Positions 793 to 22,060 of a stretch of DNA of 53,831 bases are shown here, piece after piece. The notes beneath the pieces were generated by a model, which saw nothing but the letters and a program-made list of their open reading frames with translations, was not told the DNA's origin and did not search any database. Both the position numbers and the translations under genes were made by a program. Within the stretch, counting starts at the first letter, position 1. Each line of letters begins with the position of its first letter. The stretch comes from Candidatus Kaiserbacteria bacterium. GTDB taxonomy: Bacteria > Patescibacteriota > Minisyncoccia > Phycocordibacterales > JABAAK01. The DNA lies in contig JAPOOC010000004.1 in NCBI GenBank assembly GCA_026713605.1, positions 1-53,831 on the forward strand, given 5' to 3'.

Positions 793-1075
793 ATGGTATA
801 TAGTATATAACAAAAGCACACTTTTTGTGTTTGTCCATAGCAGATTACCCTGAATTGCAATAAGTTCAGTATACACCCGCAATACCAATGCGTAGGTAAT
901 GACATTGCCTCAATGGTTAGGCGGGGAAATTGGATAAACACCCAAAACAGATGGAGTGAGAATCTAATCGCTCGCAAGGTACTGTGGTACACTATAGATA
1001 GAAGCGTGCAACTAGCGAAAGGTACAATGGTAACGCCATGAGCTGTATTGATTGAAAACAAAAGGAGGAACAAAA

Positions 1076-2404
1076 ATGAAAACTATCTTGACGGTACTTT
1101 TCACATCCATATTCGTGTCCGCCGCACTAGCACACACAGACCCCATCACATCCATTGGCTTGAGGGTGCTTGAAGACCACGGAGTACAGAAGAGAGTGGT
1201 TGACGGAGAGACGACAGAGTTGGATTGGCATACCCTCTCATACACTGCCGTAGGGACAAGTGAGGAGACCGAGTTCTCTACGCCGCGACAAACAAGCGGA
1301 CATTGGCATCCTGAGAAAACGAACAAGAGAGTATATCAACACACTGATACCCATGCGCATAGTGAGGTAAACCATGCGCATGACAACTATGTGAGTCACA
1401 CGCATCCAGGCGTTGACGGATACCCACATTTTCATTCGGAAAGTTGGAAGGAGCATTATCACCACGATCATGCTGGTGTTGAAATTAAAATAGAAGTTGC
1501 CGATCCTGTCGTGGGCAAGGTGGAAAATGACCCTGCGGTAAAGATTGGACTCGGCACAATAGCACCGCCGGGGCAGGTCCCCAGCCCTGACACACGACCA
1601 AGCGCTGAAACGCCACCTACACCGACAACAGAGACAGCGCCACAGCCGACGGGAACAGCAGCCGAGGACACTTCAACGACAATCGTTCAGTCAGCAGTGG
1701 ACACACAACCGACAGGAAGGGTGCAACCCACAGCGGAAACGCCGACAGCAGGTGCGACACCACAGCAGGGACCACATCCTACGGAGCAAAGCGAGCCACC
1801 AACTCCTGAACCTCAAAGTCCTCTAATAGTGACAGAGTACATGGTTCGGGATTGGTCGATGTTCGGCGGGGGCGGCCAACCACAGTGGGTGGAGGTATAT
1901 AATCCAAATGACACCCCGGTAAACCTTGACGGGTATGTATTTCAATATGCAGCTCGCAAGTTTATCAATCACCCGGTTAAGATCATGAGCGTTGCAATCG
2001 GTGAAGGGGAAATAGAGGGTTACGGCACTGCGATTTTTGCTACCAGCAAGATCAGATTCACAAAATACAGACAAGCGGGCATCAGTGAATCTCAGGTATA
2101 TGCACTGCAGATGCCCAATGTCTTGAAAAGAGGGTGGTGTATCAAAGATGCACAAGGAGAGATCGTTCACGCGATAGGAGAAGCGTTCGACTCTTTGTAT
2201 AGACCTGTCGCGCCACTACATCAAGAGGGTGGCAAGCGAGTATCCCATCATGTGGTACAAAGCGAACCGCCTGCAGATGACTACTATTACGGTAGTCGGG
2301 TTGACATCGGACACCCTGGATTTCACGAACCCATGGTCCCGAAAGCACCCACCGCACCCAAAGTCAAAAAGATTTTGACATGGGGGTCGCTTAAAAAGAG
2401 GTGA
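1076..2404 (+). CDS. secreted protein: signal peptide, His-rich region, Pro/Thr linker, lamin-tail-like domain, C-terminal TWGxLK motif
   Basis: SD AAAGGAGG at 1061; signal peptide ending ALA; LIVTEYM...PQWVEVYNP..VNLDGY resembles a lamin-tail domain; ends KILTWGSLKKR. Confidence 0.8.
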   Translation: MKTILTVLFTSIFVSAALAHTDPITSIGLRVLEDHGVQKRVVDGETTELDWHTLSYTAVGTSEETEFSTPRQTSGHWHPEKTNKRVYQHTDTHAHSEVNHAHDNYVSHTHPGVDGYPHFHSESWKEHYHHDHAGVEIKIEVADPVVGKVENDPAVKIGLGTIAPPGQVPSPDTRPSAETPPTPTTETAPQPTGTAAEDTSTTIVQSAVDTQPTGRVQPTAETPTAGATPQQGPHPTEQSEPPTPEPQSPLIVTEYMVRDWSMFGGGGQPQWVEVYNPNDTPVNLDGYVFQYAARKFINHPVKIMSVAIGEGEIEGYGTAIFATSKIRFTKYRQAGISESQVYALQMPNVLKRGWCIKDAQGEIVHAIGEAFDSLYRPVAPLHQEGGKRVSHHVVQSEPPADDYYYGSRVDIGHPGFHEPMVPKAPTAPKVKKILTWGSLKKR

Positions 2405-2475
2405 AGCATTCCCCCATCTTTGCACGCATCGGCGACAGTCGGTGAGTCGCAATCGTTTCTTTTCAATTAACACAA

Positions 2476-2507
2476 GGGCGCAACGCATGTTGCGCCCACT
2501 TTTATTT
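2476..2507 (+). terminator. intrinsic terminator hairpin
   Basis: GGGCGCAAC-GCAT-GTTGCGCCC followed by ACTTTATTT, between convergent genes. Confidence 0.65.
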
Positions 2508-2531
2508 CCTCTGCTGTACAACAAATCTTTA

Positions 2532-3947
2532 CTATGTACCCCTCTTTTTCACCACCGTACTGATACCATTAGCATCTATAACTTCATAGCCGAGTTCGTT
2601 AATACGAGTACGAAGTGCATCAGCGGTTGAATAATCCTTGTCGGCGCGAGCGGTATTGCGCTGAACGAGGAGATCTTGAACCTCCGGCGGGATTATCACC
2701 TGCTTACCCCTCTGCTTCGGGCGACAGAGAATGCCGAGTACACGATCCGCATAGCGGAGCGTGTTTCTTTTGCTAATAGGGGTAAGGGAAGTGTCACGGA
2801 GGATAGCATGTACCGTTGCCAGCACCTTTGCAGTGTTAAGGTCATCCGCAATAGCGGCATCAACTGCCGCACAATGCGCCGCATTGCGTTCAACATTGAG
2901 ATACGAAAGGAGGGAGTGGGGAAGGGCAGCGTACTCCTTGTGCAGACGAAACAGCGCCGTTTGGGCAGAATCAAGCGCTGCAAAAGAAAATGAGAGAGGA
3001 GTACGATACGATGCTTGCAGGAAGAGGTAGCGAAGAGCAAGTGGGTGGTACTCACGCTGCTCAAGGTCGTCAATAGTGTAAGTATTGCCAAGTGATTTTG
3101 ACAACTTCTCGCTACCCATAGTGAGAAAGGCGACATGCATCCAAAGGTTTGCAAACACAGTATCAGACGCACCTTCACTCTGAGCGATTTCATTATTGTG
3201 ATGCACGGCAATGTGATCCATACCACCGGTGTGGATGTCAATAGTCGTGCCGAGCAGTTTCATCGCCATCGCAGAACACTCTATATGCCAGCCAGGAAAG
3301 CCACGACCCCAAGGCGAATCCCATTCCTGCTGGCGAGTCACCCCGTCTGGCGTCCGCTTCCAAAGAGCAAAATCATGCGGGTGTTTTTTGCCGGCAACGC
3401 GCTGTATGCGCGCATGCTCATCACTTTCTTCAGTGTTCGGCAATCCGAGCGCACCGTAGGGTTTGTACGCCTGCGTGTCAAAGTAGATACCATCCGCAAT
3501 GTCATAGGTATATCCTTTTTGTTCCAACTGCTGTGTCAGCGCTATTTGCTCCTGGATATAGTGCGTGGCACGAGGAAAGCGATAACGGTTTGTTTTGATA
3601 TTCAATTTTTTTAAGTCAGCGAGAAAGAGGTCGCCAAAGCGGGCAGTGATTGCTTCTGCCGCCTGGTTTTCCTGCGCCGCCTGCTTCTCCACCTTATCTT
3701 CACCAGCGTCAGCATCATCAGTGAGATGCCCGACATCAGTAAAGTTGATAACATGGTTTGGGGAGTAACCAAAATGGCGCAACGCACGATGTAAAGTATC
3801 AGCAAACACATACGCGCGCATGTTGCCAATGTGTGCCGCTTGGTAGAGGGTTGGTCCGCAAGAATAAATACACACTTGTCGCCCGACGAGCGGAGTGAGC
3901 GGACGCAATGTTTTGGTTTGAGTGTCGTAGAGTTCAATAAGACGCAT
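2532..3947 (-). CDS. cysS: cysteine--tRNA ligase
   Basis: YSCGPT, HIGN, DFALWK, PWGRGFPGWHIECSAM, KLSKS motifs; start taken at MRLIELYDT. Confidence 0.97.
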   Translation of the reverse strand: MRLIELYDTQTKTLRPLTPLVGRQVCIYSCGPTLYQAAHIGNMRAYVFADTLHRALRHFGYSPNHVINFTDVGHLTDDADAGEDKVEKQAAQENQAAEAITARFGDLFLADLKKLNIKTNRYRFPRATHYIQEQIALTQQLEQKGYTYDIADGIYFDTQAYKPYGALGLPNTEESDEHARIQRVAGKKHPHDFALWKRTPDGVTRQQEWDSPWGRGFPGWHIECSAMAMKLLGTTIDIHTGGMDHIAVHHNNEIAQSEGASDTVFANLWMHVAFLTMGSEKLSKSLGNTYTIDDLEQREYHPLALRYLFLQASYRTPLSFSFAALDSAQTALFRLHKEYAALPHSLLSYLNVERNAAHCAAVDAAIADDLNTAKVLATVHAILRDTSLTPISKRNTLRYADRVLGILCRPKQRGKQVIIPPEVQDLLVQRNTARADKDYSTADALRTRINELGYEVIDANGISTVVKKRGT

Positions 3948-4003
3948 ACAAAATGTGGACTGAGTAGTATACTTAGTATGCCATAATGCTATACTTAATA
4001 TAT

Positions 4004-5680
4004 ATGAGCGAAACAAAGAAACGCACAACGAAAAAAACGGCCGCAAAAAAAGTCGTGCGCAAAAGGGCAAAGAAGAAAACAGCGACAACAACACGAAGAA
4101 CGCGGGCAAAAAAAAGTGCCGTTAAAAAAACAAAAAAGACAGCAAGAAGTGTGGGAGTAGAAGTACCAATACAGCGCGACAAGGAGAAAGGCGGCATCCC
4201 AAGCAACGGCGATGAAATGTCTATTACCAGAAAGATGTTGACCGAAACAGGATCAAAAAGGCGGATCAGTTTGCAACAGTGTATGAGCGGCCTATATCGA
4301 GTTGCCCGCGCATGCCAGCCGAGGAGTACCGCCGGTGCCATCGGCATTTTCCTCTTGGGAGTACTGATTGGTATTTTTGCACTAATCGGCACAGTATATG
4401 TCAGCAAAAACGGTACGCTGCTTCGGCTACTGGTCGGTGCTGAAGTACTAGACATTAACGGAGTTGCGATACGAGTGGAAGAGGAGATTGATTCTTCATT
4501 TAGAAACCTGCTCGCCAGCGATGTACCAAGCGACTTTAAAGATGTTAACCTGCATGACTTTTGGCAAGTGTGGCGACTCATCGAAGAATCATATGTGCCA
4601 CCACCCGAAAAAGTGACGAATGGGATTGCCACAGAAGGCGACGATATACTCAGCCGAGACGCGCTGATTACCGGCGCTATAAAGGGGCTAACGCTCGCAA
4701 CCAAAGATCGGTATACAAACTTCTTCCTCCCAAAAGACGCTGATGACTTTGAGGATGAAGTACTCAATGGCGAAATTGACGGCATCGGTGCCTACCTCAC
4801 CATCAATGATAACGATGTGCTTGAAGTGGCAAGACCAATTGACGATGGCCCCGCCGACAAGGCAGGACTACGCGCCGGCGATCTCATTATGACAATTGAC
4901 GGTGTAGACAGTTCAGAATACAACTTATCCGAGGCGGCAGACAACATTCGCGGACCACGAGGCACAACAGTAATACTAGAGATTTACCGACCAATTCTTG
5001 AAGAAGATTTAGAAATCGCCATCGTCAGGGATCGGGTAGAAATCCCGACCGTGGAGACCGAGGTGCGGGACGGTGTGTTTATAATAAAGCTCTCAACCTT
5101 TACCAAGATCACCCCGAAAGCATTTGCGGCAGCACTGCAGGAGTTTGTGGAAACAGCAAACGCTGGCGGCCCAAACCGCATCCTTCTGGATATGCGTGGC
5201 AACATGGGGGGCATTTTGTCAGTGTCGGTGTATGTCGCCGGACTATTCCTGCCACCAGAATCTCCCGTTCTCTATGAGTACGCAGGTACAGAAAAATTGA
5301 AGGTATACAAAACAGAAGAGCCGGCATTCCAAAACGGCGTTCTGCCAAAAATAACCATACTCGTTGACGGCGCAACCGCATCAGCAGCAGAGATATTAGC
5401 AGAAGCGTTACGACACTACGATGTCGCAGACATTGTCGGCACAAAAACCCTCGGAAAAGGATCAGTCCAGGCGATAAGACCGGTCGGTAGCGATAACGCA
5501 CTCCTCAAGATAACCGTCGCGCACTGGCTCACACCGGCAAAAGAATCAATCGGCGGGGAAGGGGTTACCCCTGATGTAGATTATCAAGAAGAGTTAGAGA
5601 ACCTATACAAAGAAGACCCTGAAACAGACACCGACGAAGTCGCCCTCAAAAAGGCGATAGCACACCTCATGCAGAAGTAA
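4004..5680 (+). CDS. ctpA: S41 family carboxy-terminal protease (PDZ) with Lys-rich N-terminal extension
   Basis: TM helix, PDZ (GIGA...PADKAGLRAGD), LDMRGNMGG, TASAAE, GKGSVQ. Confidence 0.9.
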   Translation: MSETKKRTTKKTAAKKVVRKRAKKKTATTTRRTRAKKSAVKKTKKTARSVGVEVPIQRDKEKGGIPSNGDEMSITRKMLTETGSKRRISLQQCMSGLYRVARACQPRSTAGAIGIFLLGVLIGIFALIGTVYVSKNGTLLRLLVGAEVLDINGVAIRVEEEIDSSFRNLLASDVPSDFKDVNLHDFWQVWRLIEESYVPPPEKVTNGIATEGDDILSRDALITGAIKGLTLATKDRYTNFFLPKDADDFEDEVLNGEIDGIGAYLTINDNDVLEVARPIDDGPADKAGLRAGDLIMTIDGVDSSEYNLSEAADNIRGPRGTTVILEIYRPILEEDLEIAIVRDRVEIPTVETEVRDGVFIIKLSTFTKITPKAFAAALQEFVETANAGGPNRILLDMRGNMGGILSVSVYVAGLFLPPESPVLYEYAGTEKLKVYKTEEPAFQNGVLPKITILVDGATASAAEILAEALRHYDVADIVGTKTLGKGSVQAIRPVGSDNALLKITVAHWLTPAKESIGGEGVTPDVDYQEELENLYKEDPETDTDEVALKKAIAHLMQK

Positions 5681-5807
5681 AATGCTACAAAACCGCCAAA
5701 ACCCCTTATGCATAGGGTAAAATAGGAGGTATTTAGGTATATACACTATCATCACTGAACATTTTCCCGCAAAAAGTGCAATATGTCCTTGCACATTACC
5801 TTGTAAC

Positions 5808-5968: not shown

Positions 5969-6238
5969 ATGGTGACTTCCGCCCTCCATCAGGAGGAAGT
6001 GGTCGCCAAGAGCGGCGACCTAGTCGCCATCGGAAGGCCAGCACAGAACGAAGTGCAGGTCTTCCGCCGCCGCAAGTCGGAAGAAGGAGGGCTAACCCTC
6101 CTTGAAACGATAAACCCCACCGACCAAAATACTCGGGGCTTCGGCTCCGAGGTCTCGTTGGTTTATGCCAGCGAGGGCTGGTGGGTAACGATCTACTCTC
6201 TGACGGGAGAGGCCCTCTCTAAGAGGGTCGAGGAGTAG
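5969..6238 (+). CDS. small protein resembling a single FG-GAP repeat blade
   Basis: GDLVAIGRP...VQVF...LLETINP.D...GFGSEVSL pattern; C-ending codons; own promoter and terminator. Start uncertain. Confidence 0.6.
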   Translation: MVTSALHQEEVVAKSGDLVAIGRPAQNEVQVFRRRKSEEGGLTLLETINPTDQNTRGFGSEVSLVYASEGWWVTIYSLTGEALSKRVEE

Positions 6239-6240
6239 AC

Positions 6241-6278
6241 AAAAAAGCCGTGTGCTGTACAGCACACGGCTTATTTTC
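6241..6278 (+). terminator. intrinsic terminator
   Basis: AAGCCGTGTGCTG-TA-CAGCACACGGCTT-ATTTT. Confidence 0.75.
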
Positions 6279-6384
6279 ATACACAACATCGCACGAACAA
6301 CCAGTTATACACATAGTACACATATTTCCACGACGGAACCAGTAGTGTAGCGATATATGAGTAATGACGCGTGGTACTATGCTG

Positions 6385-6939
6385 ATGATGCAGTATGATT
6401 TCAGTAGCTTTTCTGAACGAGAGGAAGAGGCGCTCAAGTGGCTGAGTGCCGAGTATGTCCAGATACAGTCGGGAAGGATAACGACAGCACTACTAGATCG
6501 AGTTACCGTTTCCGCATACGGCGCGAAAACTGCGCTGAACCACTGCGCCACCATCGCAGTGGAGGACGCAAAGACACTAACGGTCACACCGTATGACCCG
6601 ACACTACTACCTGACATAGAAGCGGCACTGCGGGAGCAAGCGCCATCGGTGAGCGTGGCAGTCGGCGAGACAACAGTACGGGTAATAACCCCTGACTTGA
6701 CCGGCGAACGACGAGCAATGTTAGAGAAAACCGCACGAGAGCGAATGGAGGAAGCGAAACAGTCCATTCGTGGCGGACGGGAAAAAATATTATCAGACAT
6801 GAAACAAAAAAAGGCAGACGGAGCACTGTCGGAAGATGAAGAATTTACAATAAAAAAAGAGTTGCAAGAGAAAATTGACACAGCAAACAAAAAAGTGGAA
6901 GAGATGTGTGAAAAAAAAGTGCAGGACATACAGGTATAG
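6385..6939 (+). CDS. frr: ribosome recycling factor
   Basis: IQSGR...LLDRVTVSAYG...PDLTGERR...ARERMEEAKQSIR pattern. Confidence 0.92.
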   Translation: MMQYDFSSFSEREEEALKWLSAEYVQIQSGRITTALLDRVTVSAYGAKTALNHCATIAVEDAKTLTVTPYDPTLLPDIEAALREQAPSVSVAVGETTVRVITPDLTGERRAMLEKTARERMEEAKQSIRGGREKILSDMKQKKADGALSEDEEFTIKKELQEKIDTANKKVEEMCEKKVQDIQV

Positions 6940-11511: not shown

Positions 11512-12111
11512 CTACTCATTTTCACGCTCACGCTTGAAATACTCACTCGAAATCCGTTGTTTGAGTTCAAATAGAAGGTGGGAAAAAATCGAATCTGAAT
11601 TATCTCCGTGAGGATCTGAAGGTCCTTCAGACAAAGTTCCTGCTTCAGCTTTTTCATAGGAGGAGTCATGCAGTTCGTTAGCAAGTTGTACATCATCCCA
11701 GGAAACATCGGAGAAATCAACATCTTCAAAATGGTCTGACAGAATCTGTGCCCGCTCATTATCGTTCCTATTCTTTGCGTAATAATACTCTCTCGTTCTT
11801 TCTTCTAGCTCCTGATATCCTTCGGGATATTTCCCCATCCGTGAAGAATCCTCTTGCATGTTGTAATAAAGAGTCAAATCTTCTCTTGAAGGTCTATCGT
11901 CTTCCCACAAGCCCTCATTCTTGTACGCACTGATAATCTCATCTAGCTTAAACTTTTCTCCCATTCTTTTTAAGCCGCTCTCAGTTCTTTCAAGCTCTTT
12001 TTCTTTTTCTTTAATTATTTGGGATAATTCTTTTCTCCTCTCTGCCATTAATTGATCAATTTCATTCCCCCCCCCTCTTTTTTCAATTTTTTTATTCTCA
12101 TTAAATTTCAT
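11512..12111 (-). CDS. hypothetical charged protein, AT-rich
   Basis: 199-aa ORF, E/K-rich and coiled-coil-like; composition differs from core genes. Confidence 0.7.
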   Translation of the reverse strand: MKFNENKKIEKRGGGNEIDQLMAERRKELSQIIKEKEKELERTESGLKRMGEKFKLDEIISAYKNEGLWEDDRPSREDLTLYYNMQEDSSRMGKYPEGYQELEERTREYYYAKNRNDNERAQILSDHFEDVDFSDVSWDDVQLANELHDSSYEKAEAGTLSEGPSDPHGDNSDSIFSHLLFELKQRISSEYFKRERENE

Positions 12112-12295
12112 ACTATATATAATTTCAACTTAATAATTATATAAATAGTATGCCATACCAAACGAGAAGTTACAGGAAGTTACAGTTTGGATTACCATGA
12201 AGTGCAATAATCACTAAAATTAGAATTTATTAACCACAACTTAGTACTTCAAGCGAGTCAACATCTTGTGTATTGTGAGAAATGCAGATACATCA

Positions 12296-12574
12296 CTACT
12301 TTGTGTCAATAGTCGCCATAGTACGATTCTTCGCCTTACCAGTAAAGTTTGTTTTCCGACGCGTGATAAACCGAACGACACCATCCTGCAGAGCAAACAG
12401 CGTGTGATCTTTACCAACACCGATACCTTTACCAGCAAGAATACGCAACCCCCGCTGCCGAACCAACACCTCACCAGTACGCACCTGCTGACCATCACCC
12501 CGCTTAATGCCGAGAAACTTGGGCTTTGAATCGCGTAAACTTTTTGCGGAACCTCCCGCTTTCCTATGTGCCAT
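12296..12574 (-). CDS. rpmA: 50S ribosomal protein L27
   Basis: MAHRKAGGS...[11 protein letters not shown]...LVRQRG...[11 protein letters not shown]. Confidence 0.97.
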
Positions 12575-12595
12575 AATGCTATCAGTATACAGCAT

Positions 12596-12913
12596 ATGAA
12601 AGATTTTTACAACGAATGGTATGTGATAATAGTAGTCGTATTAGTAGGAATAGGCATGTTCATGCTCGGCGGACTATTCGTACACTCACTATACAAACCA
12701 GCAAAAGCCACAGCAGACATACACCTCAAACCACTGGCAGTTGAACAACAAAACACCAACATGCGACGAGTGTACGCCTCAAAACAAGGCAAACGCTACT
12801 ACCCCTGGTGGTGCGACGCAGGCAACACCATCGCCAAAGAAAACAAAGTGTGGTACAACACCCCAGAAAAAGCAAAAAAAGAAGGATACACCATCGCAAA
12901 AGGATGCCAGTAG
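12596..12913 (+). CDS. membrane-anchored protein with Ada-like metal-binding C-terminal domain
   Basis: N-terminal TM; [14 protein letters not shown]...IAKENKVWY...AKKEGY..AKGC is a common CPR family pattern. Confidence 0.75.
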
Positions 12914-12942
12914 CAAAATGAGATATACTAATACTGTAATCT

Positions 12943-13110
12943 ATGAAAGACATAACATTTCAGCACAAGGAGAACCGACTGCGCCCCGAAGTAGCCACAC
13001 GCATTGAAAAGGATAAAAAAGATTGGGAAGAAGGGCGAAGAGAAAATTTCTCAAAACCACTTACAGATACCGCAAAAATAGACACATGGCTTAATACACG
13101 AGCATCATAA
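12943..13110 (+). CDS. 55-aa ORF sharing its first 9 residues (MKDITFQHK) with ORF 16067
   Basis: Read directly from the sequence; below the ORF-track cutoff; TATACT box upstream. Confidence 0.4.
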   Translation: MKDITFQHKENRLRPEVATRIEKDKKDWEEGRRENFSKPLTDTAKIDTWLNTRAS

Positions 13111-13152
13111 GGGGGTGTTGCTTGCTAATGTTGTTGTGGCAGAATATCAACA

Positions 13153-13983
13153 ATGGCGTTACGAAAAAACAATGGAGGCGGCATTGCGTTAATATCTGGT
13201 GACAAAGCCCATAAAGTTCTCCGGTATATTGCCAAATATGACAATCAGAGTAAGAAGACATCATCTCTCATGATTTATCCTGTGAGGGGGAAAGAAGACA
13301 CCAATCCGTACATCCTCAGGAAAATTTGTTCGGGTAAGGTGGAGCGTGAGGAAGAATCAAGCGCAAGGGGTCTGAAAATAAACTTTCACACAAGCGGTGA
13401 ATATCATATATCTGGCGGTGGTTTTAATAAGGGCAAGGGTGGGGGTAATCCATATAAAGCGCAAATAGCGTATAAACCCAATGCTCCCGGCTACTACCTG
13501 TCCCTTGCAGCAATAACCGATCACACCCGATGTCCAATTATTACAAATTTGAGGCAGGAGAGGAATAAGAAGATAGATATTCTATTTGAAATGCCGCCAG
13601 GCGGGGACGGGTGTGTGTTCATTGTGTTTATACGATTGAACAAAGGCGATGGGTACACAATACAAGGAAACACTGACAGGGGTCCAGGAGGTAGTGTGAC
13701 ATTAGATCCTGAATTAAAGGAAAGAATATGGTGGTATGTTAATGGTTTTTGTGTGCGACTTGCCGGTGGAAGCGCCTTTACTCTTAACAAAGACGGAATA
13801 GTTCCACAAGTTCTCGCAGAGGACATCTCTTCGAACGGCTGCATCTACTTAGTTTTGTGTATACCAGCGATACGCAGGGATAGGAACTTAGTGAACAGCA
13901 GAACATTAAAAAATGCGGTGATAGCACAAGTAAGTGAAATGGGCAGAGAAGTCACCACCCCATCACTTGTGTTGTTGTGGTAG
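13153..13983 (+). CDS. hypothetical protein
   Basis: 276-aa ORF in the island; no motif recognised. Confidence 0.7.
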   Translation: MALRKNNGGGIALISGDKAHKVLRYIAKYDNQSKKTSSLMIYPVRGKEDTNPYILRKICSGKVEREEESSARGLKINFHTSGEYHISGGGFNKGKGGGNPYKAQIAYKPNAPGYYLSLAAITDHTRCPIITNLRQERNKKIDILFEMPPGGDGCVFIVFIRLNKGDGYTIQGNTDRGPGGSVTLDPELKERIWWYVNGFCVRLAGGSAFTLNKDGIVPQVLAEDISSNGCIYLVLCIPAIRRDRNLVNSRTLKNAVIAQVSEMGREVTTPSLVLLW

Positions 13984-14004
13984 GGACTTCTTATTTTTGT
14001 GATT
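13905..14004. repeat. dispersed direct repeat, copy 1 (copy 2 at 16476-16563)
   Basis: ATTAAAAAATGCRGTGAYAGCACAAG...GAARTCACCACCCCATCACTTGTGTTGTYGTGGTAGGGACTTCTTATYTTTGTGATT shared; 12-nt indel. Confidence 0.9.
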
Positions 14005-14127
14005 ATGCAGGAACTATCGCAACACCTTGGGCACCCTTTTCAAGCCATTCACATCTCATAGATCTCCAAATAATGTAGCAACAAGTAAATAAAATGGTAC
14101 TACTATGATTAGGTTCCCATAGGTACA

Positions 14128-15828
14128 ATGGATAACATGGTTACACTGAGCAACCTTTCTAACACATCTGCCCATATAGATTTTAGCGGTGCCTTAGCGG
14201 CATTCGGCTTAATTTTTACTGTATACCAACTTCGTAAACCCAGTTGGGAAATTGTTTTGCACATAAGAAGTTGGTGGCAGAGACACCTTGTTTGGATATT
14301 TGGTGGCATCGCCCTTTTGTTAGTGTTGATTAAAGCGGTGGCACCCCTATCTTCCAGTTTGGTTTTGTTTCTTGAGGTTGGGGCATATATCTCCTTCATT
14401 CTTTCCCCCTTATCGTTACTATATTTTTCCACAAAAACAAAGAAACTTTTTAAGGGAAGGGAGAGGAGGTTCTACGCAGAGATGAGTTCGGCAATTGCCA
14501 CAACAAATGATGACTACGCTCGCCCTGTCGTAAAAATACTGTTAGATAATCTGGATGACATCTGCCTATCCGCGAAAAAGTATTTTAATCACACGACAGG
14601 AGGTGAAAGCAAAGTGACAGAAGAAGAGAGAACAACCTCTTTAGCACGATCAGTGCTTAATGTGTTTCTAAGTGATGAATCAGTGGCGAAAATTCTTACA
14701 ACAAAAAATCTTGCCGCCCTTCGCCACCTTTTTGTTACTATACAGAAACACAATTTGGGCGATGAAATCGAAACAGGCCTCTCTAAGATATTTCACAATC
14801 TTTACAATGACAATGAATCATTCTTTTACAAACACCTTGACTATGTAGGTCTTTCAATCTCTTCCAGCATCTATAAAACCATCTTTGGTTCTAATGATTT
14901 TCTGAATAATTTTAACCCATACCCTCCTTTTTATTTTAGGGATAAACCTCCGAGTCCATTGAGTGTGAGAGTAATAGTACATGCTTTGTCTTGCGGAATA
15001 AGGACACACTTAACGAAAGGGAACGCACCTTTAAAATCCCTTAATCGTACAGCACCAAGAAATATCAACCTTGGCCTTGAACATCTTTCTGAAATTTTTA
15101 ATAGCACATGTTTAAAAATGAATATCAAGGAATCTCGCAATTCTGATGTTGGGTATTCAATGAAAGATTGGCGGGACATATTAAACACCATCGCTCTCTT
15201 TCTCGTCCACAATTACTCATTTTTAGCACGCAGGGAAAATGTGAATAAAAATGTGAAACGCATGGAGGGAGAAACTTCAGAAGCAGACTTTTACTCAAAC
15301 ATGACAATAAATGCCGGTATTGCGGCATCCTTGTGTGAAGCGATTAAATCACTTTCATGTGTCGAGAATTATAACTCCATACACTCCATCAATGTTAATT
15401 TGTTTCGCGGGTTAAGGGGGCACTATGAAAAATACAAAAAAGGATATGAGAAACCATTCGAGAATGCGTTGTGGAGAGAGATCAAAGATAATGTTGCACT
15501 TCGTGGCTATCCGGCAACATTAAGGACATATCTTGGCTTTATAGGGGTTCACCTTGTCAGCAAAGGAAGAGAGGGAGAGTGGATGAGTAACCAAATTGAG
15601 AGAGTCCGAAGATTGTTGTATATTGATTTAAAGCCTCTCATAGATAGGTGTGAAAAAATGATTGATAAAACCGACATCAAAGAAGCACTCTTACCGACTC
15701 ATTGTATGGACTACAGAAAGGGGAAATTTATTTATATATACCGCGGTGGATCGGAAAAAGAGATTGACCCGCCGAAAGATGGCGCCAAGTCCGCCTTCTT
15801 GGAAGGCATTGATGATCTAGCGCATTAA
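14128..15828 (+). CDS. hypothetical membrane protein (3 N-terminal TM segments, large soluble domain)
   Basis: 566-aa ORF, hydrophobic N-terminus, AT-rich island. Confidence 0.8.
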   Translation: MDNMVTLSNLSNTSAHIDFSGALAAFGLIFTVYQLRKPSWEIVLHIRSWWQRHLVWIFGGIALLLVLIKAVAPLSSSLVLFLEVGAYISFILSPLSLLYFSTKTKKLFKGRERRFYAEMSSAIATTNDDYARPVVKILLDNLDDICLSAKKYFNHTTGGESKVTEEERTTSLARSVLNVFLSDESVAKILTTKNLAALRHLFVTIQKHNLGDEIETGLSKIFHNLYNDNESFFYKHLDYVGLSISSSIYKTIFGSNDFLNNFNPYPPFYFRDKPPSPLSVRVIVHALSCGIRTHLTKGNAPLKSLNRTAPRNINLGLEHLSEIFNSTCLKMNIKESRNSDVGYSMKDWRDILNTIALFLVHNYSFLARRENVNKNVKRMEGETSEADFYSNMTINAGIAASLCEAIKSLSCVENYNSIHSINVNLFRGLRGHYEKYKKGYEKPFENALWREIKDNVALRGYPATLRTYLGFIGVHLVSKGREGEWMSNQIERVRRLLYIDLKPLIDRCEKMIDKTDIKEALLPTHCMDYRKGKFIYIYRGGSEKEIDPPKDGAKSAFLEGIDDLAH

Positions 15829-16066
15829 TCTAAGGAACGATATTGTGAAAACGCATAAATACATGACTTGACACACGAGCATGTCTATCTCCCAATAGTC
15901 AAACCTCGTATTACTACGGCAAGCCCCTGCCTTTTCTTTTGCGATGCACTCGTTTCCTACTTGCACTGCTACACACCGTCGACCTTGTCTTTCATATTGA
16001 CTTTATAATGTTGGTGTAGATGGATGGGGCAACCCACTGCCTGCATTAACAAGATAAAAATCAATT

Positions 16067-16480
16067 ATGAAAGACATAACATTTCAGCACAAAGGGAGCG
16101 GCATTAAGATCACCTTCTCTTCCAATGTGCCAAAAAGAACAGACCTTTCACCAGCAGAGCTGAAAAAGCATGAGGAAGAGAGTGAAATGATGGAAAGCAA
16201 AACAAGTTTTCACTGTCCTACTTGCATGTTTCACAAGCCAATAAGGGATAGGGAACTGACAATGGCACTTGATTGTGCAACAATCAATCCAGAGGTTAAG
16301 AAGTCCTTGTACGAATATCTGTGTATTCAATGTGCCACCAACATTAAAGGAGGTGCGTATAACTGGTATACATGGATACAGAAACTTATCCGCTCAGGTC
16401 TGCGTAACTGCTCTGAGGGCAGAAAAAACATGATAAAAGATGCGCATGATATGGGGTATAAGGTTGTAGAAGAAAATTAA
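16067..16480 (+). CDS. hypothetical protein with two CxxC motifs
   Basis: CPTC and CIQC pairs. Confidence 0.65.
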   Translation: MKDITFQHKGSGIKITFSSNVPKRTDLSPAELKKHEEESEMMESKTSFHCPTCMFHKPIRDRELTMALDCATINPEVKKSLYEYLCIQCATNIKGGAYNWYTWIQKLIRSGLRNCSEGRKNMIKDAHDMGYKVVEEN

Positions 16481-16563
16481 AAAATGCAGTGACAGCACAA
16501 GCAAAAGAAATCACCACCCCATCACTTGTGTTGTCGTGGTAGGGACTTCTTATCTTTGTGATT
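16476..16563. repeat. dispersed direct repeat, copy 2
   Basis: Matches 13905-14004. Confidence 0.9.
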
Positions 16564-16798
16564 GGGTTGCTATATGTGTCTGGTTTTTCCTCCCGCTGAT
16601 TAGTTACTGTCATAGTTACTCATGGTATTGCATACAAAAAAGTCAAGCATTTCACCACAAGGAAAAGTCAAGCTAGATTTTCCTTTTAACTGTAAGGCAT
16701 TCTTTAGTTTTCCAGTGGAGGATTTTAATGGCTATTATGAAGGGTTACAATAAATAAGAAAGTACTGCTTATTGGGGTCGGTGCATCGTATATTTCTT

Positions 16799-18076
16799 AT
16801 GACAAGAGAGCGTAATAAAAATACTAGTTGTTTAATAGACATGGGAACGGGTGACTATGCAGATATTGAAAAATTTTTTAATAAATTAAATGAAGATCAA
16901 AGCCACTTTGTTAATTCAAACGATGAATCAACTCCTATAGGGTGTGTTAAAGAGATGGTGGACACCATACCAGATAGTTTTTGGAGGAAAAAAAATTTAA
17001 AAATACTTGATCCTTGTGCTGGTAATGGTAACTTTCATGCATATATTTTTAATAAAAAAACAAAGATAGAAAATTTAATTTTTAATGAGATAAATGATAA
17101 GAGAGTGAAAAACATAAGAAAAATATTTGGAAATAGCGCCAATATAAGTTTAAAAAACTTTTTAGAATTTAATGAGAGCGAGGAATATGATTTGGTGGTT
17201 TCTAATCCGCCATACGCAAAGTTTAATTCAAAGGGAAGGACTGCAAAAAATCATAATCTTTCAAGAGATTTTATAAGGAAAGCGATAAAGATAACAAAAA
17301 AGAATGGCTTTATACTTTTTATCGTCCCTGATAATTGGATGTCTTTTGCAGACAGAAATGATGTAGTCGAAATTTTGAGTCAATATCAGTTTTTGCATTT
17401 AAATATTCATGGAGCAAAGAAATGGTTTCCCAAGATAGGATCTTCATTTTCTTGGTTTTTGTTGCAGAAAACAAAAAATAGCAAACCATTTACTGTTGAA
17501 AATTTTTACAAAGTAAAATCTACTGAAAGGGTAAAGATTGATCCTGGTGTTCGTTTTATTCCGCTATACTATTCACCAGTTGTAAAATCTATCATTGATA
17601 AAACAATCAATGCTGATAATGAAAAGTATCAAATTGAAACTTCAAGCGATCTACACAAGCATACAAAAAAAGATTTGCTTTCTGTCCATAAAAACAATAT
17701 ATATAGGTATAAGGTGATACATACCCCAACTCAAGTTGTGTGGAGTAAAAGACCACATAAATATCAAAGTGGATATAAAGTTTTCATATCTCTCACCAAT
17801 CAGTACAGTACTTTTATTAATCGAAATTGTGGTGCGACGCAGAGCGTTGCATTTATTCGATGTAAGAGTAAGGAGGAAGCAGAGCAAGTGAAGGGAGAGT
17901 TAGATAGCCCTATTTACTCTTTCTTAAACAATGTTACAAGATATGGCAATTTTAATAACATACGAGTGCTACAGCATTTCCCTAAAATTAGAAGTTTCCT
18001 GCTCACAAAAAAAGAAAGAAGTTTTGTTGAGACATTTAACAAAGAATATTACAAGAGGATGTCAACAAGGAAATAA
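16799..18076 (+). CDS. N6-adenine DNA methyltransferase (M.Hpy188I-like)
   Basis: Motif I ILDPCAGNGNF precedes motif IV SNPPY (gamma order); convergent with Hpy188I-like endonucleases. Confidence 0.92.
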   Translation: MTRERNKNTSCLIDMGTGDYADIEKFFNKLNEDQSHFVNSNDESTPIGCVKEMVDTIPDSFWRKKNLKILDPCAGNGNFHAYIFNKKTKIENLIFNEINDKRVKNIRKIFGNSANISLKNFLEFNESEEYDLVVSNPPYAKFNSKGRTAKNHNLSRDFIRKAIKITKKNGFILFIVPDNWMSFADRNDVVEILSQYQFLHLNIHGAKKWFPKIGSSFSWFLLQKTKNSKPFTVENFYKVKSTERVKIDPGVRFIPLYYSPVVKSIIDKTINADNEKYQIETSSDLHKHTKKDLLSVHKNNIYRYKVIHTPTQVVWSKRPHKYQSGYKVFISLTNQYSTFINRNCGATQSVAFIRCKSKEEAEQVKGELDSPIYSFLNNVTRYGNFNNIRVLQHFPKIRSFLLTKKERSFVETFNKEYYKRMSTRK

Positions 18077-18080
18077 TATT

Positions 18081-18596
18081 TTAGGTTTGCGTGCAGAATA
18101 TTGGCATTTTATCCTCCTTTTTCATCTTTTTTAAAATACTCTTCTCCCACTGTTTTGGCGGCAATGATATTTTTTCCTTTTTTCCGAATACCAATCGGTC
18201 TATTTTTGGCGCAAAGAACGCGTACACCTCCACCTCCTTTTTGAAATTTAAAAGAGATTGCAGTACAAAATAGTTTGTTGTCGAACATGTCCCTCTTTTT
18301 CTCGCCTTGCCCTTACCGCAATTATACGACTGAACTCTTTCTTTGAAATTCTGTGTAGTACTTCCAACCTTTAAAAGGTTCTTTCCTATGACGAATATGT
18401 AAACCAGCCCTCTCCGTCGCATGTCTGAATCCTTGGCATCTTCCCTTGGCATAATTTCAAGGCACTCCTTTTTGTTGTTTGGGCGTATGTTGCAAAGAGG
18501 TTTAAATTTTGACTTATTTGGAAGATCATTAAAGCCCAGGGTAATTTTCTTAAGATCATTGATTTTTAAAGGATTGTCGTTTCTATTTTTTGACAT
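18081..18596 (-). CDS. GIY-YIG restriction endonuclease, Hpy188I family (paralog B)
   Basis: GLVYIFVI...KVG...RVQSYNCG...GTCSTTNYFVLQSLL...VYAFF...E..IL...PIFCTQT matches recalled R.Hpy188I motifs. Confidence 0.88.
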   Translation of the reverse strand: MSKNRNDNPLKINDLKKITLGFNDLPNKSKFKPLCNIRPNNKKECLEIMPREDAKDSDMRRRGLVYIFVIGKNLLKVGSTTQNFKERVQSYNCGKGKARKRGTCSTTNYFVLQSLLNFKKEVEVYAFFAPKIDRLVFGKKEKISLPPKQWEKSILKKMKKEDKMPIFCTQT

Positions 18597-18605
18597 ACTG
18601 TATTT

Positions 18606-19151
18606 TTATCTTTGAGTGCAAAGCACCGGCTTCCTGCCTTCTTCTGCCAGCGCTGCCAATATCTTTCGTTCCCAGTGTTTTGGGTTTGGTTCAACATCCA
18701 TCACAGTACCAAATATATCAGCGGCTTCTGTTTCTGGAAAAAATGCATATACATCAATAACCTTACCAAGCTTAAGAAATGATTGAAGACAGAAATAGTT
18801 TGTCGTTGAATTTTTTCCTGCTATTCTATACCTTGTTTTCCCTGTGTTATATGACTGCACTCTTTTTACAAAGGGGGTGATTGTTGATCCTACCTTTAGA
18901 ATTTTCCCATCTAAAACAAAAAGATACACTAACCCACTCCTTTTATCCACATTAAAGTCATCCGCATCTGTCTCATCAATCACCTCCAACTTCTCGTCTT
19001 TCTGGTTAGGCCTTAATTTGCAGAGGAAAGAAAAGTAATCACGATATTGAAAATTCTCTAGATATAAGTCAACCTTCTCTATCTCCTCACTCGTTACAAA
19101 ATTTTCATTTCTATTTGAGTATTTGTTGGCACTATGTTTTTTCTTTGTCAT
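18606..19151 (-). CDS. GIY-YIG restriction endonuclease, Hpy188I family (paralog A)
   Basis: GLVYLFVLDGKILKVG.TITP..KRVQSYNTG...STTNYF.LQS...VYAFFPE...E..IL...PVLCTQR. Confidence 0.88.
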   Translation of the reverse strand: MTKKKHSANKYSNRNENFVTSEEIEKVDLYLENFQYRDYFSFLCKLRPNQKDEKLEVIDETDADDFNVDKRSGLVYLFVLDGKILKVGSTITPFVKRVQSYNTGKTRYRIAGKNSTTNYFCLQSFLKLGKVIDVYAFFPETEAADIFGTVMDVEPNPKHWERKILAALAEEGRKPVLCTQR

Positions 19152-19332
19152 ATTTTTAGGAATCTGTTATGCACCAAAAACCACTTTTAAATCATTGGCT
19201 GTTGTCAGATGGTTATATGATATAAGTGTTTGCTTGGAGTGTCAAGATGTTTTAGCAGAAATCCAATTCTGCTCATTAAGAAAATCAGTTTCCACACAAA
19301 AGCACTGGTACACTACTCTTAAGCAAAGATGT

Positions 19333-19596
19333 ATGAAAAACAGTAAGACAGCAGAAAGAAAGTTTTCAATGACAGTGTCTGCACCGCACACTTTCGCGCA
19401 GGAGGAGCGTGACTTTTTGTCACAGGTAGTTACAGAAGAAATAAAAAAAGGTGCTGATATTATTGTTGATGAGGTGTTTGAAGAGAGAAACGCTGATGAG
19501 TATATCCTAAGTGGCGATAGTGTGTCTGCAGAAAGGTTGGCAGAAGCAATGGCGGACTATGTTGAATGCAAAGTTGTGCTCAAAGAGGTGCAGTAG
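19333..19596 (+). CDS. hypothetical small acidic protein
   Basis: Host-like codon usage; TGGTACACT box upstream. Confidence 0.6.
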   Translation: MKNSKTAERKFSMTVSAPHTFAQEERDFLSQVVTEEIKKGADIIVDEVFEERNADEYILSGDSVSAERLAEAMADYVECKVVLKEVQ

Positions 19597-19720
19597 GAGA
19601 GCAGTGCGGATCCGTCAGAGTCAGTAGTGTGTTGTCAAGGGGGTTAGGGGTAACTTTTACACAACGGCGGGGATAAAAAAATCCTATGGAATATAGACAT
19701 TTTTTGTTTTTGTGCAAAAT

Positions 19721-19780
19721 TGTGGAAAAAAGTGGGGATATGTGGAAATAAATGGTCTATAGTAGAAGCGTGGTGGGGAA
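19721..19780 (+). promoter_or_regulatory. MraZ operator boxes (GTGG repeats, 10-bp period)
   Basis: TGTGGAAAAA AGTGGGGATA TGTGGAAATA AATGG... upstream of mraZ, matching the known MraZ direct-repeat operator. Confidence 0.8.
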
Positions 19781-19801
19781 GAAGTACCCTCTTGCGTACC
19801 T

Positions 19802-20236
19802 ATGGAATTTTATTTGACAATGGACAAAAAGCGGCGATTTGCCGTTCCGACGAAGTGTCGGAAGATACTCGGTACGACATTAATTGTCAGCCGCGGTCTT
19901 GATAAGTGTCTGAATGTGTACGCAAGCAAAGTATGGGAGAGCGGAAAAACGAAAGCGCAGGAGTTAGATAGGCGACTTTCTATCAGCGCAAAGCACCGAA
20001 AGCTATCAAGATTTCTCACAACCGTTGAAGAGATCGCTGTTGATGGCTCCGGCAGAGTGTTGGTACCGGAACACCTTGCACAATTCGCTGACCTGAAAGA
20101 TACCATTGTGTTTGTGAGCACCGAAGAGGGTTTTCAAATATGGAGTTCACAAGAATGGGAGAACGAGGGTATGCCTGATCTGCATGAAGCACAGATGCTT
20201 GCCGAAGGAGAAGAGTTTCAAAAACTGAGTGACTAG
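19802..20236 (+). CDS. mraZ: transcriptional regulator MraZ
   Basis: Two SpoVT/AbrB repeats (DKKRRFAVP, DGSGRVLVP), SRGLDKCL; upstream of rsmH. Confidence 0.93.
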   Translation: MEFYLTMDKKRRFAVPTKCRKILGTTLIVSRGLDKCLNVYASKVWESGKTKAQELDRRLSISAKHRKLSRFLTTVEEIAVDGSGRVLVPEHLAQFADLKDTIVFVSTEEGFQIWSSQEWENEGMPDLHEAQMLAEGEEFQKLSD

Positions 20237-20241
20237 AAGGT

Positions 20242-21138
20242 ATGGAGACGCACACACCCGTACTCGTGCAGGAGGTGCTTGAGCAGATGGCGATTGCACC
20301 GAACGGTATCATGCTGGATGGCACGGTCGGACTCGGCGGTCACGCAAAACATCTGTTACGAGCAATGCAAGGCGGCGTGTTCGTGGGTATTGACGCAGAC
20401 CGGAATGCACTAACGAAAGCGCAGGAAAACCTCGCACCAGCACCAAAAGAGGTAACGGCACATTTTGTGGAAAGCAATTTTAGAGATATCGCAGCTATCA
20501 CAAAAGAGTTGGCACTGCCAGGATACGACAGAGTGCTACTTGATCTTGGATGGGGGAGCCATCAGTTACACAGCGGGAGAGGATTTTCCTTCGCACAGGA
20601 CGAGCCGCTACAGATGTGCTACAGCACCCAAGAAGGAGCATGCGTGGTAACGGCGTTTGATGTGGTCAACACCTTTGAGGAAAGCAACCTTGCGGACATC
20701 ATTAAGGGATACGGCGGAGAACGATGGGCGGTGCGCATAGCGAAGCATATTGTGGAAGAGCGCGAGACGGCACCAATCGCCACGACAAAAAAGCTTGCGG
20801 CAATTGTGGCAGGGGCAATACCGAGGCGACTACACCCGAGGCGACTACACCCAGCGACGAAGACCTTTCAGGCAATTCGCATGACGGTGAATGATGAAAT
20901 AAATACGCTCAAGCAGTTTCTTGAGGTACTACCGAAACACATGCGACCAGAAGGAAGGATCGCCATCATAGCGTTTCACAGCGGGGAAAGCAGAATAGTG
21001 AAACAAACATTTAAAAAATGGGAAGAGGAGGGTTTCGGAAAACGATATACAAAAAAAGCGCATAAACCGACAGAAGAAGAGTGCGCGCGCAATCCGCGAG
21101 CGCGGAGTGCAGTATTACGAACCTTTATTGTTACTTAA
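20242..21138 (+). CDS. rsmH: 16S rRNA m4C1402 methyltransferase
   Basis: HTPVL, DGTVGLGGH, DLGWGSHQL, RGFSF, HPATKTFQAIR, NPRARSA. Confidence 0.96.
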   Translation: METHTPVLVQEVLEQMAIAPNGIMLDGTVGLGGHAKHLLRAMQGGVFVGIDADRNALTKAQENLAPAPKEVTAHFVESNFRDIAAITKELALPGYDRVLLDLGWGSHQLHSGRGFSFAQDEPLQMCYSTQEGACVVTAFDVVNTFEESNLADIIKGYGGERWAVRIAKHIVEERETAPIATTKKLAAIVAGAIPRRLHPRRLHPATKTFQAIRMTVNDEINTLKQFLEVLPKHMRPEGRIAIIAFHSGESRIVKQTFKKWEEEGFGKRYTKKAHKPTEEECARNPRARSAVLRTFIVT

Positions 21139-21430: not shown

Positions 21431-21541
21431 TCAACATGCCACCGAAGGTGTTGACCTGCAGTATGTTGCCTGCCCTGCCGACAGGGTTAGTGGATAGCGA
21501 GTCGGTTGTATCAGTTTGCGGTATGGTATACTACAGACACT

Positions 21542-22060
21542 ATGTTAAAGATACGATTACAGCGCATCGGTCGGCGGAATAATCCGTCGTATCGGGTGGT
21601 AGTGGTGGAATCCACGGTAGCGGCGCGAAAAGGGAAGCCAGTTGAACTGTTGGGGACATACGACACAATACGAAAGACAACCTCATTGAACAATGAGCGG
21701 ATACAGCATTGGCTATCAGTCGGAGCGCAAGCATCAGACACGATGCACAACATTTTGATCAAGAATGGTGTAATAGAGGGAGTTGCCGTCAACACATTGC
21801 CGAAGAAGAGTCCAGTGAAAAAGAAAAAAGATGCAGCCGACGGCGCAGAAGCAGAGCAGAAAAGTGAAGCGCAGGCAAGTACAGGTGATGCTCCTAAGGA
21901 CACAGCAGAACCAGCAGAACCAGCGGGCGACACAAAGGATGAGGCGCCAAAGCAGGAGGTCAAGACAGCAGAACAAAGCAATACAGATGACACCGCTGAC
22001 ACCGATGCAGAAAAACCATCTTCACCCCCTCCACAAGACACTCCTTCTACGGAAGGATGA
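21542..22060 (+). CDS. rpsP: 30S ribosomal protein S16 with long low-complexity C-terminal tail
   Basis: MLKIRLQRIGRRNNPSYRVVV...ELLGTYD...WLSVGAQASDT. Confidence 0.96.
   Translation: MLKIRLQRIGRRNNPSYRVVVVESTVAARKGKPVELLGTYDTIRKTTSLNNERIQHWLSVGAQASDTMHNILIKNGVIEGVAVNTLPKKSPVKKKKDAADGAEAEQKSEAQASTGDAPKDTAEPAEPAGDTKDEAPKQEVKTAEQSNTDDTADTDAEKPSSPPPQDTPSTEG

Follow-up and report, generated by a model that had tools for sequence, protein, structure and literature searches.

The locus

The window analysed here is a stretch of 53,831 nucleotides from Candidatus Kaiserbacteria bacterium (contig JAPOOC010000004.1, positions 1 to 53,831 of the forward strand). Its positions 16,799 to 19,151 encode a restriction-modification (R-M) module of the Hpy188I type, made of one DNA methyltransferase, named M in the following, and two different nucleases, named A and B. 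This is a real and maintained two-nuclease, one-methylase system. The nuclease genes are paralogs lying in tandem on the reverse strand, and they converge on M, which is encoded on the forward strand. An earlier note on this DNA, made from its letters, had described two co-oriented paralogs 9 bp apart that face a single N6-adenine methyltransferase, and the gene coordinates agree with this description:

16799-18076, forward strand: M, gamma-class N6-adenine DNA methyltransferase of the M.Hpy188I type, 425 amino acids from the ATG at 16799 (gene-caller product P0142)
18077-18080: 4 bp between the convergent stop codons of M and B
18081-18596, reverse strand: B, nuclease paralog of the R.Hpy188I GIY-YIG family, 171 amino acids, with the canonical recognition loop C90, T100, C101
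18597-18605: 9-bp spacer from the stop codon of A (TAA) to the ATG of B
18606-19151, reverse strand: A, nuclease paralog of the R.Hpy188I GIY-YIG family, 181 amino acids, with the altered loop C90T, T100K, C101N

The open reading frame (ORF) of M covers 16772-18076 (+) and opens with a TTG at 16772; the first ATG lies at 16799, and a later one at 16841 is also a possible start. Protein A carries an N-terminal extension that is specific to its own clade (see below). The junctions between M and B and between B and A are also covered, with zero differences, by contigs of two other sequencing runs (X2 record 3, equal to 17699-19700, and X5 record 16, equal to 18532-19200), which establishes that the arrangement is not an assembly artefact. 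No sequence variation is found across 16600-19700 in contigs of four runs. To note, gene A is cut short in a different assembly of this organism, right behind the conserved NYFCLQ stretch, and its product there has 123 amino acids (P0005, on a 45,328-bp contig).

Family assignment of the three proteins

A and B share 43% identity over 168 residues (BLASTP E value of 4e-47). Both match the chain of Hpy188I whose structure is solved (3oqg_A), A with an E value of 2.1e-39 (residues 20-180 on chain residues 21-179) and B with 1.6e-35 (residues 1-171 on chain residues 11-180). The PADLOC REase_II profile PDLC03493 detects them with E values of 1.2e-41 (A) and 8.8e-39 (B). The Pfam GIY-YIG profile (PF01541, gathering cut-off of 22.6 bits) scores B at 18.3 bits (E value of 0.0028), below the cut-off, and does not match A at E values up to 0.1. 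Such sub-threshold scores are expected, since standard methods are reported to miss the link of the Hpy188I family to GIY-YIG (PMC2630997). The GIY-YIG fold predicted for A and B is an assignment by homology that rests on the solved Hpy188I structure.

The methylase matches the Pfam Eco57I profile (PF07669) with an E value of 4.6e-13 and the PADLOC MTase_II profile PDLC03273 with an E value of 3.3e-166, over positions 23-424 of the 432 of the profile. It carries an NPPY motif, and it is 59% identical over 406 amino acids to the methylase adjoining the Hpy188I nuclease in a Helicobacter pylori locus (L016). It is the sole match to PF07669 in the genome; other methylase families are encoded elsewhere, and none besides M at the R-M locus.

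Hpy188I is the structural model for DNA cutting by GIY-YIG nucleases (PDB entries 3OQG and 3OR3). It is a homodimer produced by one gene and cleaves TCN^GA, and M.Hpy188I is an N6-adenine methyltransferase. By every sequence criterion tested, the module of the window belongs to the Hpy188I R-M family. Its recognition sequence is probably TCNGA, with N6-methylation of adenine as the putative protecting modification.

Active-site and DNA-contact residues

In the structural description of Hpy188I (PMC3045582), Tyr63 is assigned as the general base of an active site that includes Lys73, Arg84 and Tyr88; the metal is bound by Glu149, which a domain swap brings in trans from the partner subunit. The interface measures 2500 square angstroms, 2200 of which come from the swapped region (PMC3045582). 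The same description lists base contacts by the side chains of Ser87, Ser102 and Gln169, a contact of the Thr100 main-chain carbonyl with cytosine, and an intercalating Cys90 that is inserted like a wedge in the major groove where the site ends (PMC3045582). Residue positions are given here in native Hpy188I numbering, to which the 3oqg_A chain adds 10 (ten-residue tag).

Residues Y63 (in LVY), K73 (in KIG), R84, S87, Y88, S102, E149 and Q169 are present in A, in B and in all mapped orthologues. The same eight-residue set is found in 185 of 196 family sequences, a collection built from loci and from database proteins of 150-215 amino acids, without the distant HpyAORF481P-like group and the first copy of locus L078. 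Both paralogs look catalytically competent. The retention of the catalytic Tyr, Arg and Tyr and of the helix Glu, claimed beforehand for both proteins, thus extends to all eight mapped residues. The motifs quoted with that claim all occur in the translations: GLVY and RVQSY, as well as the pairs SYNCG (B) and SYNTG (A), GTCSTTNY (B) and GKNSTTNY (A), and CTQT (B) and CTQR (A). The differences within these pairs are informative at positions 90, 100 and 101, but not in CTQT/CTQR, as the residue following CTQ (T/R) varies freely across the family.

The contact loop has C90, T100 and C101 in B, and T90, K100 and N101 in A. As residue 100 touches the cytosine with its main chain, these replacements may or may not alter specificity. 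The T/K/N triple occurs in all eight A-clade members and in none of the 188 other family sequences. Cys90 is conserved in 95% and Thr100 in 99% of 185 other sequences; outside the A clade, the combination CTN is found in 125 sequences, TTN in four and STN in three, one of the latter being the second nuclease copy of locus L032. The A clade changes three near-invariant residues, C90, T100 and V108. The B clade changes others: Phe25 (to Leu or Ile), Tyr95 (to Ala or Asn) and Pro126 (to Ala or Thr) in all three members, and Lys92 to Thr in two of the three. The divergence is complementary, each paralog being altered where the other and almost the whole family are unchanged. The swapped C-terminal hairpin is also strongly different between A and B. 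Among the A-type proteins that appear to be paired with a B-type one on other contigs, P0001 lacks about six residues in the region of the glutamate helix, and in P0002 the near-invariant CT ahead of Q169 is replaced by RR.

Charge complementarity between the chains was considered as evidence for a heterodimer and dropped. The net charge of paired A proteins is +2.7 to +6.7 and that of B proteins +18 to +21, with +16 for P0003 and +19 for P0007. The outgroups P0008 and P0047 resemble paired A at many of the differing positions, which indicates that the P0003 group is the derived one. The A-clade protein P0008, from a contig of 1347 bp, has an odd composition, with Trp at four family-invariant Gly positions (75, 91, 99 and 135); it looks like the product of a gene in which UGA encodes Gly (code 25), translated with UGA as Trp.

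Phylogeny and origin of the pair

The A clade contains seven further proteins (P0001-4 and P0006-8) that are 56-74% identical to A, with 74% for P0001 and 70% for P0002. The B clade contains two, P0046 (70% identity to B) and P0032 (60%), among the 120 of 169 matches listed. In a careful tree of 57 sequences, A clade and B clade (window B, P0046 and P0032) are each supported at 100/98; the separate clades that the earlier note proposed to look for are therefore present. In this tree, P0047 is the sister of the A clade (99/96), and the group of A, B and P0047 joins a subfamily with a convergent gene layout at 89/85, apart from the canonical clade (99/99).

Two characters are shared by both paralogs. 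A tryptophan directly preceding the catalytic Glu, Trp148, is found in all 12 sequences of the A clade, the B clade and P0047 and in none of 184 others, and the segment between E44 and G60 is 3-4 residues longer in 11 of these 12 sequences and in none of the 184. Their sharing indicates that A and B stem from one duplication inside this small lineage, and it is these two rare characters, not branch support, that point to a single old duplication. As to gene conversion between A and B, no DNA tract longer than 23 nt (78% identical) is shared.

A profile search of 1.84 billion cluster representatives retrieved 291 proteins at E values up to 0.001. Two representatives with Trp148 were seen, P0262 (P0047-like) and P0001, which heads the list, the proteins checked being P0001, P0262-P0265 and P0267. 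One of these, P0264 (596 amino acids), consists of an M.Hpy188I-like part followed by an R.Hpy188I-like part (residues 425-595) and is a natural methylase-nuclease fusion.

Recurrence on other contigs

The A-B pair appears to recur on two other metagenome contigs, to judge from proteins that come from contigs of equal size. A 19,129-bp contig is linked in this way to P0001 (A-type) and P0046 (B-type), and a 126,076-bp contig to P0002 (A-type), P0032 (B-type) and the methylase P0144 (76% identical to M). The branching order ((window, 19129), 126076) is identical in the A and B clades of the 57-sequence tree. Path lengths from the window proteins to the 19129 and 126076 partners are 0.55 and 1.00 for B and 0.36 and 0.44 for A; B evolves faster, 1.5 to 2.3 times A over the same contig pairs.

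A-type nucleases also seem to occur with a methylase and without B. By equal size, a 373,975-bp contig carries the A-type P0003 and the methylase P0146 (69% identical to M), and a 25,877-bp contig carries the A-lineage P0047 and the methylase P0151 (66%); no B-clade partner for either contig is found among the 120 of 169 matches listed. The closest homologues of M, P0144, P0146 and P0151, thus share contig sizes with A-lineage nucleases. On the same evidence of contig size, B-type proteins are seen only beside an A-type one (three of three, the window included), and A-type proteins both with and without B. Equal-size linking misses partners: it yields no methylase for the 19,129-bp contig or for the 36,741-bp contig of P0007, and no nuclease for the 104,678-bp contig of the methylase P0147. 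The earlier note had suggested checking whether the three-gene layout recurs; the A/B pair appears to do so on two more contigs, as linked by size, and M is matched for the 126,076-bp contig only.

A metagenome scan with a profile of the A clade produced 244 pattern matches, none encoding a relative, and the 36 loci retrieved from the genome collection include no A-clade or B-clade member. A tblastn search with A found no match in the plasmid and phage collections; a relative in R-then-M order is encoded on one viral contig (L039). Among 400 other genomes sampled from the phylum, none gives a match at E values up to 1e-5, which marks the module as a sporadic, acquired element.

Locus layouts across the family

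The arrangement of methylase (M) and nuclease (R) genes was surveyed in 36 genome loci and 42 close metagenome loci (78), with some contigs represented in both sets:

M then R, co-oriented, single R: 31 genome and 23 metagenome loci
M in two pieces, then R: 1 genome and 0 metagenome loci
R then M, convergent: 1 genome locus (L026, a metagenome-assembled genome (MAG) of the Parcubacteria group) and 12 metagenome loci
R then M, co-oriented: 0 genome and 2 metagenome loci
R only: 0 genome and 3 metagenome loci
M, R, R (two nuclease matches): 3 genome loci and 1 metagenome locus
M, R (reversed), R: 0 genome loci and 1 metagenome locus

Three of the loci with two nuclease matches, L027 and L036 from genomes and L081 from a metagenome, contain one nuclease gene in two pieces, and true full-length nuclease pairs are found in two of the 78 loci, L032 and L078. 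The first, from a gammaproteobacterial MAG (OZ242372.1), has M at 3974-5197, a first copy at about 5184-5705 and a second at 5983-6507. Both copies are co-oriented after M, lie 277 bp apart, are 72% identical and are sister taxa (99/99); Cys90 is kept in one and replaced by Ser in the other. The second (positions 125-4070 of a metagenome contig) has two deeply diverged nuclease copies in divergent orientation beside one M. Together with the lineage of the window, these loci indicate that nuclease doubling beside one methylase arose at least three times in the family.

Other observations concern single loci or the methylases. An ORF of 425 amino acids follows the nuclease genes of L078; from its motifs, we take it to resemble a DUF262/HNH-type protein. 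In L020, from an H. pylori strain, the methylase is in two pieces. Seven methylase homologues of 611-639 amino acids, 61-68% identical to M (P0156, P0158, P0160, P0162, P0168, P0175 and P0192), have additional Pfam matches to Peptidase_S24 and the LexA DNA-binding domain and are therefore taken as fusions of the methylase with a LexA-like repressor. Several of these fused methylases share contig sizes with convergent-layout nucleases.

Two nucleases under one methylase

The reading that we tentatively prefer, at a confidence a little short of even, is that of a horizontally acquired Type IIP R-M module of the Hpy188I family whose nuclease is encoded twice and acts as a mixed population of dimers. 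A and B are old paralogs, which would be co-transcribed as an A-then-B operon convergent on one methylase. The metal-binding glutamate of each chain would complete the active site of the partner subunit, and the two chains would assemble into AA, AB and BB dimers, all of which would cut only sites protected by the single methylase. A would be the self-standing core enzyme that accompanies methylases of this lineage, and B an accessory copy kept only beside A. The two may differ in fine substrate preference, that is, in flanking bases, in modified cytosines of phage DNA or in sensitivity to phage inhibitors, so that the pair would restrict more invaders than either enzyme alone.

The operon is suggested by the region upstream of A and by the 9-bp spacer, in which no promoter-like or terminator-like site is found:

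19217-19245, reverse strand: promoter-like site, TTGACA-17-TATCAT, 11 of 12 consensus positions matched, about 65 bp upstream of the A start

This is the best promoter-like site of the region, but alone it is weak, as the consensus scan found 15 sites against 12.1 expected. A single A-then-B transcript starting there is probable. One transcript, combined with a domain-swapped dimer whose glutamate acts in trans, makes the mixing of AA, AB and BB the default expectation. Since A and B read the bases with the same side chains and M belongs to the TCNGA type, every form of dimer is expected to act within TCNGA. Furthermore, the pair is kept in a very small genome and, presumably, across lineages that are 60-76% identical, which suggests that A and B are not redundant. 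The likeliest benefit would be a wider or sturdier range of restriction under the protection of a single methylase.

A model of the A+B complex, one of the dimer predictions proposed in the earlier note, gives an interaction prediction score from aligned errors (ipSAE) of 0.60, whereas the best of three controls scores 0.00; the verdict of the tool is 'weak support', and the score does not tell AB from AA or BB. At least 88% of the contacts are common to the runs, and the predicted local distance difference test (pLDDT) of the partners is at least 86. Of 157 solved complexes, 116 reach the mark of the tool, as do 2 of 215 mismatches, but scores of 0.60 or less come from only 18 of the 157 and from both passing mismatches.

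Several observations weigh against the mixed-dimer reading. The A+B score may be a memory of the solved Hpy188I homodimer; it would express compatibility and not preference, and AB is not separable in it from AA and BB. The co-occurrence of A, B and M elsewhere is deduced solely from equal contig sizes in three protein tables, not from DNA. In the 57-sequence tree, the grouping of the B clade with P0047 and the A clade reaches only 69/61, a weak support for A and B as sisters, and in a quick tree of 97 sequences the A clade and P0047 are neighbours of the canonical group (support of 91), with B falling among the convergent one (82). Only K100 is truly specific to the A clade, since T or S at position 90 and N101 also occur in loci with a single nuclease gene or in unchecked ones. 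No RNA run is among the listed runs that contain the stretch. Finally, TCNGA is barely avoided in the genome (1926 sites against 2194 expected, a ratio of observed to expected (O/E) of 0.88), which gives no sign of long-standing restriction pressure at TCNGA and is uninformative on specificity.

Alternatively, A and B may form two separate homodimers, AA and BB, with interfaces too diverged to mix, both being isoschizomers or near-isoschizomers of TCNGA covered by M and both being kept for different tolerance of DNA modification or of phage anti-restriction proteins. We regard this as unlikely, if a serious contender. A-type nucleases seem able to stand alone with this methylase lineage (P0003 with P0146, P0047 with P0151), the catalytic and base-contact residues are all intact in both paralogs, and A and B are only 43% identical, with a strongly different swapped hairpin and no gene-conversion tracts. 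The 72%-identical pair of L032 shows, in addition, that duplication arises without a prior heterodimer design. However, the B clade is never seen without its A-clade partner (three of three), which is unexpected for a self-sufficient enzyme; co-translation from one operon and a swapped interface of 2500 square angstroms favour mixing, and the A+B model is not rejected.

It is distinctly improbable that A and B act obligately or mainly as an A/B heterodimer, a GIY-YIG equivalent of BbvCI or Bpu10I whose separate and perhaps asymmetric specificity would be a subset of TCNGA sites set by flanking or central bases. The more general form, an obligate or preferred heterodimer with active sites from both chains, in which unequal loops (the Cys wedge against Thr90/Lys100) would read the TCNGA halves or flanks differently, is rather improbable as well; it would be the first heterodimeric GIY-YIG restriction endonuclease, and inactivating one chain could give a strand-specific nicking enzyme. 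Such an assembly would account for the loss of different family-invariant residues in the two paralogs (C90, T100 and V108 in A; F25, Y95 and P126 in B), for a B found only with A, for the 9-bp gap and for the congruent branching of both clades, and it is consistent with an active site completed in trans and with the weak 0.60 against 0.00 of the A+B model. Conversely, a single M stands beside the pair and no other gene of that type is found in the genome, A and B share the side chains that read the bases, and A-type nucleases seem to work without B elsewhere. Restricting a subset of the protected sites offers no obvious gain, and an asymmetric enzyme would have no rationale beside one methyltransferase for a palindromic site. 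The earlier note had left the choice between a heterodimeric enzyme and a combinatorial set of AA, AB and BB dimers; the combinatorial set is the best reading, and the occurrence of A-type nucleases with M and without B, the unchanged base contacts and the palindromic site with one methyltransferase speak against the obligate heterodimer.

It is very improbable that one copy does not work as a nuclease and is either decaying after duplication or, by entering mixed dimers, serves to moderate the toxicity of the other. The faster evolution of B (1.5 to 2.3 times A) with its loss of three near-invariant residues, the deletion in P0001 and the RR in P0002 would fit this, but no catalytic residue is lost in either protein, the window and presumably two lineages at 60-76% identity have both ORFs intact, and a genome of 0.59 Mb is unlikely to keep a useless gene so long.

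Comparison with known systems

The Hpy188I system of H. pylori resembles the module of the window in the full-length homology of the nucleases, the catalytic set, the base-contacting Ser87, Ser102 and Gln169, and the methylase family. It differs in having one nuclease gene instead of two. The usual order in the family is M then R (31 of 36 genome and 23 of 42 metagenome loci), whereas the nuclease genes of the window converge on M. Unlike Hpy188I, A lacks the intercalating Cys90 and has Lys100, and both A and B have Trp148 and the insert of 3-4 residues.

The convergent-layout subfamily (L026, L056 and L069 among others; 13 loci) is closer, with R then M in convergent orientation, deletions of one residue each within the C-terminal hairpin and ahead of P-[IV]-[FL]-C-T-Q, a grouping with the A and B clades at 89/85, and methylases that are 63-68% identical to M. 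In contrast to the window, its members have a single nuclease gene and neither Trp148 nor the insert, and several of their methylases carry a LexA/S24-like extension that is absent from M. L032 and L078, like the window, combine one M.Hpy188I-like methylase with two full-length nuclease genes of the Hpy188I family; they stand outside the Trp148 lineage, L032 as a recent in-place duplicate and L078 as a deeply diverged and divergently oriented pair.

The heterodimeric enzymes that are known to act on asymmetric sites come with a pair of methylases. The window resembles the BbvCI and Bpu10I systems in encoding two different nuclease subunits side by side, and differs from them in its GIY-YIG family, its probably palindromic site and its single methylase, its two-chain assembly being a prediction. 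BbvCI is described as having two different nuclease subunits with one catalytic site each, and Bpu10I is named in the same paper (PMC6326814). Both are heterodimeric Type IIT enzymes of the PD-(D/E)XK fold that act on an asymmetric 7-bp site. A search of the literature, REBASE not included, where an unpublished annotation is possible, gave no account of Hpy188I-family nucleases in pairs or of any heteromeric restriction enzyme of the GIY-YIG class, in line with the earlier note, whose author knew of no described example.

To judge from sequence, the module functions in the manner of Hpy188I, from which it departs by its two diverged nuclease genes, its convergent layout and the loop of the A clade. 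Nuclease duplication and divergence under an unchanged methylase, having occurred three times independently, is a viable and repeated route in the Hpy188I family. The pair may be the first case of a GIY-YIG restriction enzyme working as a mixed pair. Mixing of the chains would make the pair the first heteromeric restriction enzyme of the GIY-YIG class, from which strand-specific nickases for TCNGA could naturally be developed. Without mixing, the two would be a natural isoschizomer pair, and positions 90 and 100 would reveal the role of the intercalating cysteine and of the neighbouring loop in specificity or in tolerance of modified DNA. Either way, this is a contained question of enzymology, not a new kind of system.

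Genomic setting and avoided sites

The genome has 594,491 bp in 11 contigs and is 92% complete; the DNA runs that contain the stretch are labelled as sponge metagenome. The R-M genes are part of a low-GC stretch, flanked by an L27 gene (12296-12595) and mraZ (19802-20236):

13153-19700: low-GC stretch (approximate borders) with the R-M genes and three ORFs without a family match

The GC fraction in 1-kb windows of 14001-20000 is 0.31-0.40, against 0.458 for the genome. The three ORFs, all on the forward strand, are located at 13153-13983 (276 amino acids), 14128-15828 (566) and 16067-16480 (137) and have no significant Pfam or PADLOC match; the last one contains paired Cys motifs and has a zinc-finger match at sub-threshold level only. 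Rfam gives no match in 12000-21000.

Several other palindromes are avoided genome-wide. ACGT is strongly avoided, with an O/E of 0.03 (70 counts on both strands against 2219 expected), and AGNCT has an O/E of 0.10 with all four central bases; GGCC (0.31), CTAG (0.40), TCGA (0.41) and AGCT (0.49) follow. The contig of the window (C3) holds five AGNCT sites, two of them within the low-GC island at 15285 and 15632. We know of no enzyme for AGNCT. DNA methyltransferase genes are many for 0.59 Mb: seven places exceed the PF01555 cut-off and three that of PF02086, and PF00145 has no match in the genome. These places include C7:85073-85753, C4:35345-36268, C7:534-1253, C1:2932-3561, C9:34901-35821 and C7:64968-66239, as well as C5:8619-9536, C7:78953-79678 and C10:113654-114316. 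The abundance of methyltransferases may be related to the avoidance of palindromes.

Beyond the low-GC stretch, an ORF at 21506-22060 (+) encodes 184 amino acids with an S16-like start, as read from the translation, followed by a long low-complexity acidic tail rich in Lys, Ala and Pro.

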